64,000 nucleotides of DNA from an uncultured Spirochaetota bacterium (GCA_963820435.1 CAWGAC010000008.1:6497-70496); one strand, 5' to 3'. Shown: positions 55,938 to 64,000, numbered from the stretch's first letter. The notes: generated from the letters alone by a model not told the origin. Program-made: numbers and translations.

Positions 55938-57629
55938 ATGATGAGCACCTCCACGTGGCTGCGCGACAGAAGCCGGCCTGCCCGGCGCAACCTTGCCCTG
56001 ACGGTCGCGCTGGGCGAGCTGTCGGGAATCCTCCTGATCCTCCAGACTTCTTTTCTCGTCCAGATCGGCAATGGCGTCATGTTCCGAGGGAGCAGCCTTC
56101 CCCGGCTCCTGCCCGTCTTTGCGGCGCTCCTGGGCGTGATCCTTCTGCGCGCCCTCGCCGCGTGGGGGTCCCGGCGCGCCGCTTTCGAATGCGCGTCCGG
56201 CGCGAAACTGACCCTGCGCAGGGAGCTCACGGAGCACCTCCAGGCCATCGGACCGATTGCCCTCGCGGGCATGCGCGCGGGGGAGATCGCCCACACCACG
56301 GTCGACGCGGTGGAAGCCCTGGATGCCTACTTCTCGAAATACCTTCCCCAGCGGGCCATCGCCACCCTGCTGCCGTTCACGATCCTTGCCGTGGTGTTTC
56401 CACTGGACTGGATCTCGGGGCTCGTCCTCGTCCTCACCGCGGTATTCCTTCCCCTGAACATGATCGTCATCGGCGAAGAATCGCACGCCCGCAACCAGCG
56501 CCTGTGGGGAAAGCTCGCCCGGATGAGCGGGCATTTTCTCGACGCGCTCCAGGGACTGGCGACGACGAAGATGTTCGGCGCCGCCCGCAGGGAGGCGGGA
56601 GAGATCGCCCGGACGTCCGAAGAGTACCGCGGCATGACGATGTCGGTTCTCAAGGTAGCATTCCTGTCTTCGTTCATGCTCGAGCTGATTGCGAGCGTCA
56701 GCATCGCCCTGGTCGCCATTCTCTCGGGGCTGCGTCTGCTCTCCGCTTCCATGGAGTTCGCCCCGGGGTATTTCATCCTGTTGATTGCCCCCGAGTATTT
56801 CCTCACCCTGCGCGCGCTGGGAACCTTCTATCATTCGCGCATGGAGGCGGTAAGCGCCGCCGACCAGGTGCGGGCCCTTTTGCAGACGGGCCCGCCGCGG
56901 CGTCTCCCGGATTCCCCGCCCGCCACGCGCGCGGCGGCCCGGCCCGCAGCGCGGATCGCTCCCCGCCCGCGGCATGCGCGCGGGGTGGCTTTTGAAGGCG
57001 TATCCTTCGCGTACGAAGCGCGGCCCATTCTGGAAGATGTGACATTCTCTGTAAGCTCCGGGGAACATGTCGCCGTCCTCGGAGCGAGCGGGGCAGGCAA
57101 GTCGACGCTCCTCTCCCTGCTCCTGGGCTTCGCCACGCCCGACAGCGGCCGGCTGCTCATCGACGGGAATGACCTGCGCGACCTCGACAGCCGCGCGTGG
57201 CTCGACACGGTCGCCTGGCTGCCGCAGCGGCCGACCCTGTTTCACGGAACCTTGCGGGACAACATCGTTCTCGGCCGGCCGTCAGCCGGCGACCGCGAGA
57301 TCCGGGAGGCCATTCGGCTTTCACACGCGTCGGAGTTCATCGAAAGAATGCCTGCCGGGCTCCACACCCGCGTAGGGGAAGGGGGACAAGGGCTTTCCAT
57401 GGGACAGCTCCAGCGCGTTGCGCTGGCCCGCCTGTTCCTCCGTGACCCGGGCCTGGTCCTCCTCGACGAGCCGACGGCCCACCTGGACCCGGAAAGTGAA
57501 CGCATGGTGAATGCCGGAATCCGCAATCTGACGGAGGGCCGCACCACGGTCCTGGTGACCCATCGCCCGGCCGACGGGGTGGATCGTGTGCTCGCCCTCG
57601 CCGCCGGCCGGATACGCGAGGCTTCATGA
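55938..57629 (+). CDS. cydD: Thiol/heme ABC exporter subunit CydD
   Basis: YFSKYLPQ, LRVAFLSS-like motif, LIAPEYF..LR..G..YH, GASGAGKS and DEPTAHLD. Confidence 0.92.
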   Translation: MMSTSTWLRDRSRPARRNLALTVALGELSGILLILQTSFLVQIGNGVMFRGSSLPRLLPVFAALLGVILLRALAAWGSRRAAFECASGAKLTLRRELTEHLQAIGPIALAGMRAGEIAHTTVDAVEALDAYFSKYLPQRAIATLLPFTILAVVFPLDWISGLVLVLTAVFLPLNMIVIGEESHARNQRLWGKLARMSGHFLDALQGLATTKMFGAARREAGEIARTSEEYRGMTMSVLKVAFLSSFMLELIASVSIALVAILSGLRLLSASMEFAPGYFILLIAPEYFLTLRALGTFYHSRMEAVSAADQVRALLQTGPPRRLPDSPPATRAAARPAARIAPRPRHARGVAFEGVSFAYEARPILEDVTFSVSSGEHVAVLGASGAGKSTLLSLLLGFATPDSGRLLIDGNDLRDLDSRAWLDTVAWLPQRPTLFHGTLRDNIVLGRPSAGDREIREAIRLSHASEFIERMPAGLHTRVGEGGQGLSMGQLQRVALARLFLRDPGLVLLDEPTAHLDPESERMVNAGIRNLTEGRTTVLVTHRPADGVDRVLALAAGRIREAS

Positions 57630-59353
57630 GAGACCTGTTTCGCCTGGTAAAGCTGGTGCGTCCCCACTGGCGGCTGGCGGTGCTCGGGCTTGCTCTCTCC
57701 CTTGCGACGCTCCTGGCCAATGTCGGGCTGCTTGCGCTCTCCAGCTGGTTCATCGCGTCGATGGCGATTGCGGGCCTGGCCGGCACATTGATGGACTACA
57801 CGACCGCGGGCGCGGGCGTACGCGCTCTTGCCCTCGGCCGGGCCGCGGGGCGGTATGCCGAGCGGCTCGTCAATCACGATGTCACGTTCAGGATCCTCTC
57901 CGCGCTGCGCGTCTGGTTCTACCAGCGCATCGAGCCTCTCGCCCCCGCGCGACTGTCCGCGTATCGAAGCGGCGATCTGTTGAGCCGCATCCGGGCCGAC
58001 ATCGACACCCTGGACGATTTCTACGTGCGCGGGGTCGTGCCTTCGATCGTGGCCGTGCTCGCCGTCGCCTGCATTGTCCCGTTCCTCGCGCATTATGACG
58101 CGCGTCTCGCGTTGATTGATGGAGCAGCCCTGGCATTCGCCGGCGTCCTTCTTCCGCTGCTCCTGCACCGGCTGTCCGCGCGCCCGGGGCGCGAGCGCGT
58201 CGCGTGGGCCGCGGAGCTTCGCGCGTCGATCGTCGAGGAAGTCCAGGGAATGGCGGAGCTCGTCGCGCTCGGCGCAGCGGGCGCGCATGCCGCGCATATC
58301 GAGGCGGCAGGCCGGGAGATGGACGGACGGCAGCGCACGCTCGCCTCGCTGCAGGGGCTCGGCGACGCGGGCATTGTCGCGGCGAGCGCCCTCGCCGTGT
58401 GGGCCGCCGCCTTTGTGCTCGCGCCCGTTGTGGCCGGCGGCGGGCTGCCGCGCGCCGACATGGCCATGCTGACCGTGCTCGTCCTTGCCGGCTTCGAGAG
58501 CATCATGCCCCTGCCCGGCGTGATGCAGAGGGCGGGGGAAATGACCGCCGCGGCGCGCCGGCTTTTTCAGATCATCGACGCGGTCCCCGCGGTCAAGGAG
58601 CCCGCGGAACCGGGGGACGCTGCCCGGGCCTTCTTTCCCCCGGGAAAGAAGACTCCCGGCCCGGTATCCCTGTCGATCCGGGATCTTCGCTTTCGATACT
58701 CTCCTGAGCAGCCCTGGGCAATCGATGGACTCTCCTTCGACATTCCCGCCGGCGCCCGGCTGGGCATCATCGGGCCCACAGGAGCGGGAAAGAGCTCGCT
58801 CGTCAATGTCCTTCTGCGCTTCTGGGATTTTGAAGCCGGAAGCATCCGGGTGTTCAACGCCGCCGACGGACAGGGCGGGACGGGTTCCGACGGGTATGAC
58901 CTGCGCGCGATGGCTCCTGAAGATGTCCGGAGGCTCTTCGCCGTGGTGCCCCAGGCGCCGTACCTCTTTCACGCAAGCATTCGCGAGAATCTGCTGATCG
59001 CGCTTCCGCCCTCTCTCGATCCGGCGGCGCGGGACGAGGCGCTCCTGTCGGCGCTGCGGGCCGCGCAATTGTCGGAGTTTGTTGCCTCTCTGCCGGACGG
59101 CCTGGATACGATCGTCGGTGAGACCGGCCGGGAGGTCTCGACCGGAGAGATGCAGCGTATCGCCGTTGCGCGGGCCCTGCTTCGGGACGCGCCCGTCTAT
59201 ATTCTCGATGAGCCCACGGAAGGGCTCGATGATCGGACGGCCGGCATGCTCCTCGACACGCTTGCCGGGAAGCTGCCGGGGAAGACGCTCGTTGTCATCA
59301 CCCACCGTGAACGCGAGCTGGCAATAGTCGACAGCGTTGTTCGTCTGGGCTGA
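57626..59353 (+). CDS. cydC: Thiol/heme ABC exporter subunit CydC
   Basis: RYAERLVNHD.TF, GDLLSRI..D.DTLD, GPTGAGKS and DEPTEGLD; ATGA overlap with cydD. Confidence 0.92.
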   Translation: MRDLFRLVKLVRPHWRLAVLGLALSLATLLANVGLLALSSWFIASMAIAGLAGTLMDYTTAGAGVRALALGRAAGRYAERLVNHDVTFRILSALRVWFYQRIEPLAPARLSAYRSGDLLSRIRADIDTLDDFYVRGVVPSIVAVLAVACIVPFLAHYDARLALIDGAALAFAGVLLPLLLHRLSARPGRERVAWAAELRASIVEEVQGMAELVALGAAGAHAAHIEAAGREMDGRQRTLASLQGLGDAGIVAASALAVWAAAFVLAPVVAGGGLPRADMAMLTVLVLAGFESIMPLPGVMQRAGEMTAAARRLFQIIDAVPAVKEPAEPGDAARAFFPPGKKTPGPVSLSIRDLRFRYSPEQPWAIDGLSFDIPAGARLGIIGPTGAGKSSLVNVLLRFWDFEAGSIRVFNAADGQGGTGSDGYDLRAMAPEDVRRLFAVVPQAPYLFHASIRENLLIALPPSLDPAARDEALLSALRAAQLSEFVASLPDGLDTIVGETGREVSTGEMQRIAVARALLRDAPVYILDEPTEGLDDRTAGMLLDTLAGKLPGKTLVVITHRERELAIVDSVVRLG

Positions 59354-59405
59354 ATCCAACGGGGCTTTGCCGGTGTAGTAACTTTACGTGAGAGGAATGC
59401 AGGCC

Positions 59406-60428
59406 ATGAAAACACATCCGCTCCCATCCGCTGAGGGAGGCCCGAGCGACGAAGAGCTCATGCAGGAGCTCGCCCGAAAAAGGCCGGGGGCCCTCCAGCC
59501 GCTCTTTGCGCGCTACGCGCCCCTTGTTTTCCACATTGCCTCCCAGAGTCTCGATCCCGGGTCCGCGGAGGATATCGTGCAGGACGTCTTCCTCGGACTC
59601 TGGCGCAAGGCGGACACATACGATCCCCGAAGGGGCGCGCTGCGGCCCTGGCTTCTCCAGATCGCCCATTTTCGGATCCTCAATGAGCTTCGCGCCCGCA
59701 GCCGCAGGCCGCAGCTGGACCCCGACGTTGACCCGGACGTGGTGGACGAGCTTCCCGATACGACCGCGGAGCCCGTGGAAGCGGCCTGGCAGGCGTACAG
59801 GCAGGAAGCGGTCCGCGCGGCGGTGGAACGGCTGCCGCCCGCGCAACGCCAGGCATTGAGCCTCGCGTTTTTCGATGAGCTCACCCACGACCAGGTGGCC
59901 GTTGCGCTGAATCTTCCCCTGGGCACCGTGAAGACACGGATCCGGGCAGGGGTGCAGAAGCTGCGCTACATCCTTGCGCCCCTTGGCGTGGCCGCTGTCG
60001 CCATCGCCCTGCTCATCGGCGTCGGAGTGCGGTTCAACCAGCAGCGCATCATCGCGCAGCGTCATGAGCGCGCGCTCTCCATGGCCACGGCAAGCGATAT
60101 CACCACTCTGCACATACCGGCTGTTCCCGGCATACCGGCCGCCACGCACGGCTCATACCGCGGCAGGCCCGGGACCCCGCTGGGCATCATTGCGCTGCAC
60201 AACTTCGCCCCGGCGCCGGCAGGAAGGACGTACCAGGCCTGGGTCCTTCACCGTGGTACGTGGACCTCCATGGGCACGTTCGCCCCGGATTCGGCGGGGG
60301 AGGGGCTGCTCGTGGCCGAAGGAAAGGCGTTCATGGAGCTTCCCGAGGAAGTGAAAGTAACGCAGGAGCCAAGGGGAGGGAGTCCCGTCCCCGCCGGCCC
60401 TGAGGTGATCGGTTGGCAGGCAAAATAG
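59406..60428 (+). CDS. ECF sigma factor (SigK-like) fused through one TM helix to an RskA-like extracytoplasmic domain
   Basis: Sigma2 (AEDIVQDVF..LW) and sigma4 (LPPAQRQAL...GTVKTRIR), then LGVAAVAIALLIGVGV (TM), then YQAWV...VTQEP.GGS..P (RskA C-terminal pattern), all in one frame. Confidence 0.8.
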   Translation: MKTHPLPSAEGGPSDEELMQELARKRPGALQPLFARYAPLVFHIASQSLDPGSAEDIVQDVFLGLWRKADTYDPRRGALRPWLLQIAHFRILNELRARSRRPQLDPDVDPDVVDELPDTTAEPVEAAWQAYRQEAVRAAVERLPPAQRQALSLAFFDELTHDQVAVALNLPLGTVKTRIRAGVQKLRYILAPLGVAAVAIALLIGVGVRFNQQRIIAQRHERALSMATASDITTLHIPAVPGIPAATHGSYRGRPGTPLGIIALHNFAPAPAGRTYQAWVLHRGTWTSMGTFAPDSAGEGLLVAEGKAFMELPEEVKVTQEPRGGSPVPAGPEVIGWQAK

Positions 60429-60500: not shown

Positions 60501-60830
60501 CTACAAATCTTCCTTGCCGCCGATCGAATGATACTCCTTTTCCTTCAGCTCGATCCGCGCGCGGAGACCCTCGATTTCCTTGAGCATGTCGCTGATCAAC
60601 GGAGTATCCCGGCTCACCGAGGTGCCGTTCTTTTCCACAAGGGCCCTGTAGACTTCGTTGCCGAGCCGGGCGATGACCTTTTCCGCGTGAGACTCGAGCT
60701 GCATGATTTCCAGCTTGACCATGCCCATGGCGCCGAGGTCTTTCGCCTTCTCGCCGGCTTTGCTGGCCAGGTCTTTCGTTGCCGCCACGCCCTTGTTGAT
60801 GATGCCCTGCATTTTTTCTGCGAATGTCAT
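60501..60830 (-). CDS. Hypothetical coiled-coil protein (109 aa)
   Basis: GGGAGCGG RBS; helical composition. Confidence 0.65.
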   Translation of the reverse strand: MTFAEKMQGIINKGVAATKDLASKAGEKAKDLGAMGMVKLEIMQLESHAEKVIARLGNEVYRALVEKNGTSVSRDTPLISDMLKEIEGLRARIELKEKEYHSIGGKEDL

Positions 60831-60846: not shown

Positions 60847-61125
60847 TCATTCCTTGCGGCCGGTAAGCTTGATGATATGGTAGCCGAACGATGTGGAGAC
60901 TGTGTCGCTGAGGGATCCCGATGAGAGCCTCTTGCAGGCCTCTTCGAATGCCGGCACCATCTTGCCGGGCCCGAACCACCCCAGGTCTCCGCCCCGGGAT
61001 TTCGACGGGCAGGTGGAATGCTCCCGGGCCATTGCTTCGAAACTCGCCCCCCGCTTGATTTTTCTCAACAGCTCGTCGGCCAGACGCTTGTCCCTCACCA
61101 GTATGTGACTTGCACGCCATTCCAT
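60847..61125 (-). CDS. ppiC: Parvulin-type peptidyl-prolyl isomerase
   Basis: ASHILV, FEAMAREHSTCPS..RGGDLGWF, MVPAFE and FGYHII. Confidence 0.92.
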   Translation of the reverse strand: MEWRASHILVRDKRLADELLRKIKRGASFEAMAREHSTCPSKSRGGDLGWFGPGKMVPAFEEACKRLSSGSLSDTVSTSFGYHIIKLTGRKE

Positions 61126-61935: not shown

Positions 61936-62955
61936 ATGAGCAGGTCAAAGAATAACAACAAAACGGTTTCCTCGTGGCTGATCCCCGCCATATCCCTTGT
62001 CATTCTTGCACTTTTCGCCGGAGGCGCCTGGCTCTATGTGGTTCAGAGGGATCGCGTGCTGGCCGCAGCCGAAGAAAACCTCGATGCCATCGCGCGATTG
62101 AAGGTGGACCAGATCGTCCAGTGGCGGAACGAACGGCTGGGCGATGCCGCGGTGCTGATGGAGAATCCCTACTCTTCCGAGGCGCTCGCACGATGGATTT
62201 CGGGCAGCCGGGGCGACGGAACCGAGCAGGTTCTCGCTTTGTTCCGATCCCTGCGCGCGCACTATCGCTACAGCGACATCATTCTTGTCGACCCCAGCGG
62301 CCGAATGCTGCTCAGCCTGAATGGCCAGACTGGCAACCTCGGCAAGGAAGTATCTCAGGCCGTTGGTGACTCCCTGCGCGAACGGCGCCCCCTGCTCAGC
62401 GATCTGTACGCCGGTACCGGCGAGGGGGTTCCTCATCTCGATGCAATTGCCCTGTTGAGGGCCGGAAACGGGAATGACTCCAGAGCCCTCGGCGCCAAAT
62501 CCGCCGAGTACGTCGGCGCCGTTATCCTGAGGTGCGACGCCAAGGACTTTCTCTATCCTCTGCTCCAGTCATGGCCCTTGCCCAGCAGGAGCGGTGAAAC
62601 CCTGCTCGTCAGACGCGACGGGGGCGACGTGCTCTATTTGAACGATCTTCGTCACCAGGCACATACGGCGCTCTCGCTGCGCATCCCTTTGAGCCGGAAA
62701 GACACGCCGGCGGTCGCCGCCGTGATGGGTAAACAAGGCGTCTTCTATGGGAAGGATTATCGCGGGGTCCGGGTAATGGCGGCTCTCGCCTACCTTATCG
62801 CTGAGATGAAGCCCGGGCTGAAGATTCTTTTCATGTCCGGCTACACGGCCGACGTCATCGCGCACCAGGGCATTCTCGAGGAGGGGGTGAGCTTCGTGTC
62901 GAAACCTTTTTCGATGAACGCCCTGGCCGAAAAGGTCCGCGAGGTGCTAGGGTGA
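61936..62955 (+). pseudogene. Internally deleted hybrid sensor kinase: TM + Cache domain fused to the last third of a receiver domain
   Basis: Cache domain ends DYRGVRVMAAL and is followed directly by IAEMKPGLKILFMSGYT...KPFS (receiver C-terminus). TM2, kinase domains and the phospho-acceptor Asp are absent. Confidence 0.7.
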
Positions 62956-64000
62956 CGGCAGCAGGAGGCGGAAGGTGGACCCGGTGCCCGCCTCGCTTTC
63001 AACCTCGATCCTGCCCCCGTATTGGGAAACGGTGCTCTGGCTGACCGCAAGACTCAGGCCGACCCCTTTTATCTGGGACTGGCTTGTGTGCATGGGGGCC
63101 CATTCACCCTTGGTTGTAAAGAACGGCGTGAAGAGACGGGACAGATTCTCCGATGGGATGCCGCAACCGGTATCCTCCACTTCCAGCAGGGCATACCCGG
63201 GGACGCTTCCCGACCGGAGGGTGAGGACGCGAAGAGGTCGGTCGAGAAGCGCATCGAGAGAATTCGTCAGCAGGCTTGCAAAGATGAAATCGAGCTGGGC
63301 CCGATTGATTCGGAGCGGAGGGGTCTCGAGGAGGTCGAGGATCACCGTAACGCCCTGCGCCTCGATGCGCTTTTCGAAGAGCGGGAGCAGGGAACGGACG
63401 ATGTCATCGAGGCGGAAGGCCCCTTCCCCGGATTGCGCCGTCCCCGAGAGTCCCTGCAAACGGTCAGTGATATCCACCGCACGCTGCACGCCCTTCAAGG
63501 CTTCCCGCGCGTACAATCGTGCCTTGTCCGGAAGATCTCCCGACTGAAGGAGGACGTCGAGGTACCCCTTCACCACGGTATTGATGTTGTTGAATTGGTG
63601 GGCGATCCCGCCCGCCAGCGTGCCGAGGCTTTCCAGGCGTTGGGCGCGCATGATCTGCGCCTGGATCGCTTTTTGACCGGTGATGTCACGAGCGATCGAA
63701 GCGGTCCCCACCACCTCGCCGTCCGTATTTCGGATCGGCGAAAGGGCGAGGGAGACATGTATCAGCGTGCCGTCTTTTCGTCTTCGCTGAGTTTCGAAGC
63801 CCTCGATATGCTCTCCCCGCATAATCTTCCCCCTGAGCTCACGGGCCTCATCGTCGAGCTCGGGCGGCATAAACAGGGAGGAGGGTTTCCCGATGGTTTC
63901 CTTCGCGGTGTAGCCGAAGACATTCTCCGCCCCCTTGTTCCAGCTGGTGACGATTCTGTTCATGTCCAACCCCACGATTGCGTCCAGAGAGGATTCGACG
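62947..64000 (-). CDS. PAS-domain sensor histidine kinase (starts outside the window)
   Basis: PAS (WNKGAE.VFGY), GGIAHQFNN (H-box), NSLDA, DTGCGI, FFTTK and GVGLSL. Confidence 0.92.
   Translation of the reverse strand, partial: VESSLDAIVGLDMNRIVTSWNKGAENVFGYTAKETIGKPSSLFMPPELDDEARELRGKIMRGEHIEGFETQRRRKDGTLIHVSLALSPIRNTDGEVVGTASIARDITGQKAIQAQIMRAQRLESLGTLAGGIAHQFNNINTVVKGYLDVLLQSGDLPDKARLYAREALKGVQRAVDITDRLQGLSGTAQSGEGAFRLDDIVRSLLPLFEKRIEAQGVTVILDLLETPPLRINRAQLDFIFASLLTNSLDALLDRPLRVLTLRSGSVPGYALLEVEDTGCGIPSENLSRLFTPFFTTKGEWAPMHTSQSQIKGVGLSLAVSQSTVSQYGGRIEVESEAGTGSTFRLLLPSP

Follow-up and report, generated by a model that had tools for sequence, protein, structure and literature searches.

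Organization of the fused gene

The window, the 64,000-nucleotide stretch of DNA that was analyzed, derives from the MAG of an uncultured Spirochaetota bacterium from soil or peat; the CydA of this genome is 95% identical to that of another record labeled 'uncultured Spirochaetota bacterium'. On its plus strand, a reading frame that is open for 346 aa from the GTG at 59388 (59388..60428) encodes a sigma factor that continues through a transmembrane (TM) helix into an RskA_C domain. The ATG at 59407 is the likely translation start and would yield a protein of 340 aa (59407..60428, +), the modal length among homologues. Orthologues point to this codon, as does a Shine-Dalgarno-like GAGAGGA, read from the sequence at 59390..59396 (+), 10 nt 5' of the ATG. 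The element GAGAGGAA is also found, with equal spacing, in the orthologues L091, L094 and L096. Residue numbers throughout refer to the 346-aa frame that begins at GTG 59388.

Sigma region 2 (59502..59708, +; residues 39-107; Pfam Sigma70_r2, E 3e-19) contains many residues that are invariant in an alignment of 121 sequences. It is predicted to bind core RNA polymerase and to recognize the -10 element. Sigma region 4 occupies 59805..59966 (+; residues 140-193), with a match to Pfam Sigma70_r4_2 at residues 140-192 (E 4e-14). Its helix-turn-helix (LPLGTVKTRIRAGVQKLR) is the putative reader of the -35 element, and residues G179, T180, K182, R184, I185 and R186 are invariant in all 121 aligned sequences. 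The single TM helix, ILAPLGVAAVAIALLIGVGVR (59970..60032, +; residues 195-215; Kyte-Doolittle mean 2.5), is the only hydrophobic segment detected by a hydropathy scan of the fused protein. It is followed by a periplasmic juxtamembrane helix (60033..60089, +; residues 216-234), assigned from an AlphaFold2 (AF2) model, and by a β-sandwich that we presume to be the sensor (60102..60419, +; residues 239-344), assigned from Pfam RskA_C and AF2. The Pfam RskA_C match itself extends over residues 201-338 (E 5e-15, 56.3 bits against a cut-off of 29.4). The domain matches and the single hydrophobic segment bear out the preliminary description, which had read the gene as sigma2/sigma4 running in frame into one TM helix and an RskA-type outer domain.

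A Pfam scan found no zf-HC2, RskA_N or other anti-sigma domain in the fused protein. This agrees with the earlier proposal that the anti-sigma domain is missing and that the gene is not the product of a lost stop codon. Judging from the alignment, there is no room for such a domain between sigma region 4 and the membrane, because the match with the canonical paralogous sigma stops at ..QKLRYIL196, where the TM helix begins.

The sigma part belongs to the ECF (group 4) sigma-70 factors. It comprises regions 2 and 4 only, both with Pfam matches above the cut-off, and the N-terminal 197 residues score 95.8 bits against the NCBIfam sigma70-ECF model TIGR02937 (cut-off 42.9). Its best PDB relatives are all ECF sigmas, and sequence comparison pairs it with sigma-E of R. 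sphaeroides (2q1z) and SigK of M. tuberculosis (4nqw). The best-scoring NCBIfam subfamily models are PRK12519 (144.4 bits, cut-off 222) and the SigK model PRK09646 (120.7 bits, cut-off 226); both scores lie well under the cut-offs, placing the protein outside the PRK12519 subfamily and outside SigK proper. All members of the family at present carry no annotation more specific than 'sigma-70 family RNA polymerase sigma factor'.

A cydC-like ABC exporter gene (57626..59353, +; Pfam ABC_membrane and ABC_tran) lies upstream and is regarded here as context outside the system. It is found in this position only in the window and in its closest relatives (L089, L090 and L095), of which the closest two are 88-91% identical. 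The adjacency to cydDC had been taken as a hint of a redox or envelope role. Because it is seen only in these closest relatives, a redox link is unsupported; the predicted regulon (below) points to an exported metallophosphoesterase instead. Across the long contigs examined there is no generally conserved neighborhood around the fused gene, and the neighbors differ entirely.

Two genes converge on the fused gene from downstream. The first (60501-60830, -) encodes a helical protein of 109 aa without a Pfam match, the second (60847-61125, -) a small parvulin-type peptidyl-prolyl isomerase (PPIC rotamase). In other lineages, neither gene stays beside the sigma gene. Further along the window, a 339-aa ORF (61936-62955, +) contains an N-terminal TM helix and has no Pfam match. 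Its last ~45 residues (..KILFMSGYTADVI...VSFVSKPFSMNALAEKVREVLG) resemble, by eye, the C-terminal end of a response-regulator receiver domain, and the ORF could be what is left of a sensor gene after truncation or rearrangement. Its end and that of a convergent PAS histidine-kinase gene (62947-63975, minus) overlap by 9 bases.

Structure models of the fused protein

The full protein was modeled with AF2 using the 121-sequence alignment, which resulted in a mean pLDDT of 77.6. Region 2 reaches ~90 and region 4 65-76, and the linker between them is disordered. The region 4.2 recognition helix, the TM helix and the periplasmic juxtamembrane helix are combined into one unbroken helix (residues 178-234), in which the confidence of the part leading from sigma region 4 to the TM is moderate (pLDDT 59-76). 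The outer domain forms an eight-stranded β-sandwich with a pLDDT above 90. When residues 221-346 were modeled separately, eight strands were again obtained, with a pLDDT of 94.3.

A Foldseek search of the outer domain against the PDB gave nothing at E <= 0.001. The best E-value was 0.014, and the top TM-score among the 50 matches listed was 0.42. With no significant match, the domain is therefore best described as a generic β-sandwich whose fold offers no clue to a ligand. The fold search with the full-length model returned sigma factors only.

The fusion is conserved across several phyla

A protein search of 5.8 billion sequences yielded more than 1000 homologues. The best 120 of these, which extend down to 53% identity, were examined; they are 283-370 aa long, and each contains all three domains, with the same Pfam matches as the window's protein. 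A second, profile-free search took only residues 190-346 as the query. Among 1.84 billion representatives clustered at 50% identity, it added about 32 clusters with the same architecture (305-380 aa), in which the match starts at residues 170-230. A Pfam rescan covered 38 sequences, consisting of the window's protein and 37 others (cluster representatives and a few odd entries): Sigma70_r2 was detected in 35 and RskA_C above threshold in 28. The full-length homologues of like architecture that the preliminary description had called for were thus recovered by both searches. Named members belong to Spirochaetota (Spirochaetia), Binatia, Myxococcota, Dehalococcoidia and Thermoanaerobaculia.

Within the genus of the window's genome, 15 of 20 other genomes carry the fused gene, three of them in frameshifted form (G010:C494:1559-2567, G015:C12:227246-228224 and G002:C44:16898-17930). 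These copies are either sequencing errors or recent pseudogenes, and their breaks lie inside the sigma domain and not at the former gene boundary. Three other loci, L007, L012 and L025, were first taken as full-length relatives and are in fact canonical two-gene pairs.

The source of the window is a MAG and frameshifted copies occur in three related MAGs (G002, G010, G015), so the fusion could conceivably be an assembly join, a deletion specific to this MAG, the result of a lost stop between sigma and anti-sigma genes, or a gene in decay. We consider this next to impossible. More than 150 sequences, which come from many samples and represent several phyla, have the identical junction, and both halves are strongly conserved; because the junction is kept in ~150 independent sequences, an assembly join is untenable. 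A lost stop would leave an anti-sigma domain of ~90 aa between sigma region 4 and the TM helix, and such a remnant is absent from every family member. The frameshifts of the other MAGs also fall within the sigma domain, as described above, and not where the two genes would once have met. Close relatives are themselves fused and two-gene pairs occur only among more distant paralogues, contrary to the case in which relatives retain separate genes and the window carries a unique deletion.

Origin from a SigK/RskA-type pair

A canonical paralogous pair is encoded on the same contig as the fused gene (G000:C8:319.6-321 kb; locus L001 1471-2845; minus strand). Its ECF sigma has 201 aa; the anti-sigma factor encoded after it has 233 aa and contains an HxxxCxxC zinc motif, a TM helix and an RskA_C domain. 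ABC-2 exporter genes adjoin the pair at L001. The fused protein is 42% identical to this pair in the sigma part and 32% identical in RskA_C. The nearest non-fused sigmas, from related genomes and from other phyla, are each followed by a separate gene bearing RskA_C.

In a maximum-likelihood tree of the sigma domain, 43 fused sequences form one clade with a support of 100/99 and a stem length of 0.6; the fused sequences were gathered by similarity, and their monophyly partly follows from that sampling. The clade is nested in a larger one (98/89) that otherwise consists of sigmas from canonical pairs. From the tree and the canonical pairs we infer a single origin of the fusion: a SigK/RskA-type pair was joined, losing its anti-sigma domain, and the fused gene then diversified.

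The window's fused protein contains no cysteine residues. Cysteine-free members account for 65 of the 120 close homologues (the best 120 of more than 1000) and for 21 of the 32 cluster representatives. Cysteine-less SigK homologues function without activation by RskA, and often occur with an abnormal RskA (PMC7509140), which fits a loss of the anti-sigma domain in the fused lineage.

Promoter and predicted regulon

A putative ECF-type promoter precedes the fused gene (59353..59380, +), with the -35 element AATCC at 59353-59357 and the -10 element CGGTGTAGTA at 59371-59380. The gap between ATCC and GTGTA is 15 nt, and the element overlaps the stop codon of cydC (59351-59353). Transcription is predicted to start near 59384-59386. 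A general scan for sigma-70 promoters and terminators gave nothing useful.

The sequence GAATCC-N16-TGTAG (59352-59378) had earlier been noted as a possible ECF-type autoregulatory promoter, and it is conserved across orthologues. The full bipartite element reads AATCCAA-N10-CCGGTGTA-N-TA. Phylogenetic footprinting substantiates the assignment: the pattern ATCC-N15-G[TC][GT]TA, with fixed spacing, precedes the fused gene at 19 of 20 loci even though their upstream genes are unrelated, against a chance expectation of ~0.003 per 260-nt region (estimated from base composition). The distance from the element downstream to the conserved SDEE codon is 67-124 nt in 18 of these 19 loci and 192 nt in L087. 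Within the genus, the exact pattern gave ~20 matches, compared with 1 for the reversed control.

The promoters of canonical paralogous sigmas do not match the ATCC-N15-GTGTA motif. This argues that the fused sigma has its own promoter specificity and autoregulates, as far as can be judged from motif conservation. The promoter of the L105 canonical paralogue reads AATCC-N17-GTATA, with the same type of -35 element and a different spacing and -10 element. It suggests how the specificity of the fused clade may have diverged from that of its two-gene relatives.

In the window's genome, a scan for the regulon found two sites above noise, namely the promoter of the fused gene and a site upstream of a metallophosphoesterase gene. 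The latter lies at G000:C29:1984-2008, before the ORF 2032-2946 (locus L148 1501-2466). A third exact match (C13:39311) was dismissed: a long open reading frame covers it on the opposite strand, and its conservation is that of coding sequence. The metallophosphoesterase is an exported, calcineurin-like protein of 305 aa, with a signal peptide and a Pfam Metallophos match, and is distant to the CpdA/SpdA phosphodiesterases. The motif, 9-23 nt upstream of this gene, is the recurring match in the genus besides those of the sigma genes. It is present in all 7 metallophosphoesterase orthologues of the genus, with diverged spacers, and all 7 of these genomes contain the fused sigma gene (the G015 copy is frameshifted). 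The metallophosphoesterase is thus the predicted main target of the fused sigma; this prediction is based on motif conservation alone, in a MAG that is 75% complete.

In other lineages, a gene for an exported YVTN β-propeller with an amicyanin-like type-1 copper cupredoxin is located directly downstream of the fused gene (L083 9036-10304; L086 7145-8419; L087 7205-8545). This arrangement occurs in 3 of 6 long contigs, and in L086 the motif of the sigma precedes the β-propeller-cupredoxin gene. No orthologue of it was found in the window's 75%-complete genome.

The junction and the proposed mechanism

The TM helix begins 2-3 residues past the end of the alignment with sigma region 4 of the canonical paralogue. 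This spacing hardly varies: the uncharged stretch in the membrane begins 4-9 residues beyond the invariant RIR of the region-4 recognition helix in 146 of the 148 family members compared. The helix is rich in Pro, Gly and Ala: the helix-destabilizing residues Pro or Gly are found within it in 147 of the 148 members, Pro near its cytoplasmic end in 119, and small residues make up 45% of its length. Pro/Gly and small-residue features of this kind are typical of site-2 protease (S2P) substrates. A gene for an RseP-like S2P (Peptidase_M50) is present in the window's genome; S2P genes are ubiquitous, and this presence does not discriminate between mechanisms.

The juxtamembrane helix terminates in a conserved motif, (D/E)RAL-x-(M/L)-V-T-(A/S)-S-D. 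Among the 121 aligned sequences, A229, L230, T234 and D237 are conserved in at least 90%, and S236 is invariant. The ERAL-type motif is retained in representatives that are just 34-51% identical overall, and is lacking in the canonical RskA of the same genome. Segment 216-234 is thus a candidate for a site-1 cleavage or signal-transmission segment.

The most likely mechanism, which we regard as probable, is regulated intramembrane proteolysis of a pro-sigma factor silenced by its tether, with positive autoregulation. It is favored because of the anatomy of the protein, the precedent of IutY (described below) and the S2P-like features of the TM helix. In the intact protein, region 4 would be pressed on the membrane, preventing a productive holoenzyme on DNA. 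A signal perceived at the RskA_C domain or at the juxtamembrane helix would lead to site-1 cleavage in the periplasm. A site-2 protease of the RseP type would then cut inside the Pro/Gly/Ala-rich TM helix and free the sigma, which would retain a hydrophobic tail. The freed sigma would transcribe its own gene, and so reinforce its own synthesis, together with a few genes for exported proteins: the metallophosphoesterase in this genus, with the β-propeller-cupredoxin included in other lineages.

Alternatively, the sigma could be active while anchored, similar to ToxR or CadC, with RskA_C acting allosterically or by oligomerization and the polymerase being recruited to the membrane without any cleavage. 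Two conserved residues where the TM helix meets the cytoplasm, Pro198 and Gly200, could serve as a hinge and leave region 4 functional at the membrane. AF2 models the junction with moderate confidence only, and the predicted targets are exported, so that transcription at the membrane would not be absurd. Only 2-3 residues, however, separate the -35-recognition helix from the bilayer in ~150 sequences, while region 4 must dock on the β-flap of a 400-kDa enzyme. ToxR-type proteins possess cytoplasmic linkers, whereas essentially no linker is present here. The only studied hybrid of such a layout, IutY, requires proteolysis (PMC5411451). We therefore hold activity in the anchored state to be unlikely.

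It is similarly improbable that tethering is not inhibitory and that an extra inhibitor, acting in trans or within the molecule, silences the sigma, leaving localization or a second layer of control to the TM helix and RskA_C. Multi-layered control of ECF sigmas is common (PMC7826278), RskA both activates and inhibits SigK (PMC7509140), and another ZAS-RskA anti-sigma factor is encoded in the genome. The latter, though, belongs to the paralogous pair, in which it is matched with a sigma of its own under a different promoter. No anti-sigma gene adjoins the fused gene in the window, nor is one conserved beside it in the long contigs examined, and the fused sigma, with no cysteines, is unlike the redox-locked SigK.

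The tethered pro-sigma model can be carried further, to a reading that we consider less likely than not. According to this extended reading, the family would be a distinct, unclassified ECF group in which geometry alone replaces the anti-sigma factor: the -35-recognition helix of region 4 would run on into the membrane helix, and the tether by itself would silence the sigma. An S2P cut in the Ala-rich part of the TM helix (..GVAAVA..) would free the sigma with a degron-like tail, resulting in a self-limiting pulse of the exported regulon (the metallophosphoesterase, and elsewhere the β-propeller-cupredoxin). Such a group would be widespread in uncultured soil and sediment Spirochaetota, Chloroflexota, Acidobacteriota, Binatota and Myxococcota.

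Comparison with known systems

A full-text search of the literature found no description of an ECF sigma fused to RskA_C. The papers covered were, among others, the reclassification of ECFs (PMC7826278), a review devoted to non-canonical ECFs (PMC8999054), an analysis of their evolution (PMC7671368) and a survey of SigK/RskA (PMC7509140). The main text of the ECF classification contains no group with an RskA_C extension (PMC7826278; Casas-Pastor et al. 2021). The principle is already known, from IutY and from predictions for ECF48, ECF52 and ECF53; the family, its promoter and its predicted regulon appear to be undescribed.

The closest two-gene system is SigK/RskA of Mycobacterium tuberculosis and its relatives (ECF18/ECF19; PDB 4NQW). 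The sigma factors are related, with a 4nqw_A profile match of E 3e-25 and an E-value of 6e-35 for the NCBIfam SigK model. Both systems share the RskA_C extracytoplasmic domain and an ATCC-type -35 element, to which the promoter of the L105 canonical paralogue is also similar. The M. tuberculosis RskA is a substrate of the S2P Rip1 (PMC7509140). While SigK and RskA are two proteins, with an anti-sigma domain at the N-terminus of RskA, the fused system is one protein in which this domain is absent. SigK also carries a redox-sensitive cysteine pair (C133/C183 in M. tuberculosis), which is present in 94% of ECF18 and 56% of ECF19 (PMC7509140), whereas the window's fused sigma has no cysteines.

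In Actinobacteria, the sigmas of the ECF48, ECF52 and ECF53 groups (e.g. SCO4117) carry C-terminal extensions in which a zinc-finger anti-sigma domain is joined to TM helices and to a domain outside the cell (PMC8999054). They resemble the fused family in having a membrane-spanning C-terminal extension on an ECF sigma, for which activation by proteolysis is predicted. These groups retain the ZAS domain between the sigma and the membrane, whereas the fused family lacks it, having neither a zf-HC2 match nor cysteines. They also have 1-6 TM helices and other outside domains, for example carbohydrate-binding ones, in place of RskA_C.

Sigma/anti-sigma hybrids have so far been represented by one studied protein, IutY, and by predictions for the actinobacterial groups. 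The fused family is a minimal system with one gene, one promoter motif and one clear predicted target, in which one could readily test if a tether to the membrane is by itself enough to take the place of an anti-sigma domain. The family could help to reveal what RskA_C domains sense, and the fused sigma could act as a compact orthogonal transmembrane switch.

IutY of Pseudomonas putida consists of a sigma factor, one TM helix and a periplasmic FecR-type anti-sigma domain, and is activated by Prc and RseP (PMC5411451). It is a FecI/FecR-type protein of group ECF243 that undergoes regulated intramembrane proteolysis (Bastiaansen et al. 2014; PMC5411451), and its truncated forms are constitutively active (PMC5411451, PMC8999054). 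The fused protein has the same layout: one chain holds a sigma, a single TM helix and an anti-sigma-type domain in the periplasm, and lacks a sigma-binding tail in the cytosol. In IutY, activation proceeds by removal of the C-terminal part, first by Prc and then by RseP; for the fused family we infer such activation by analogy.

The two differ in their descent and in their inputs. IutY combines a sigma of the FecI-like clade with a FecR domain, while the fused family combines one of the SigK-like clade with RskA_C, and Pfam detects no FecR domain in the fused protein. IutY needs the TonB-dependent transducer IutA, whereas none is linked to the fused gene, whose neighbors are the ABC exporter, the small protein and the parvulin. 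Finally, IutY has been described as a unique protein. The same solution appears to have arisen independently in the SigK/RskA lineage, where it has become a large and stable multi-phylum clade with its own promoter motif and specificity.
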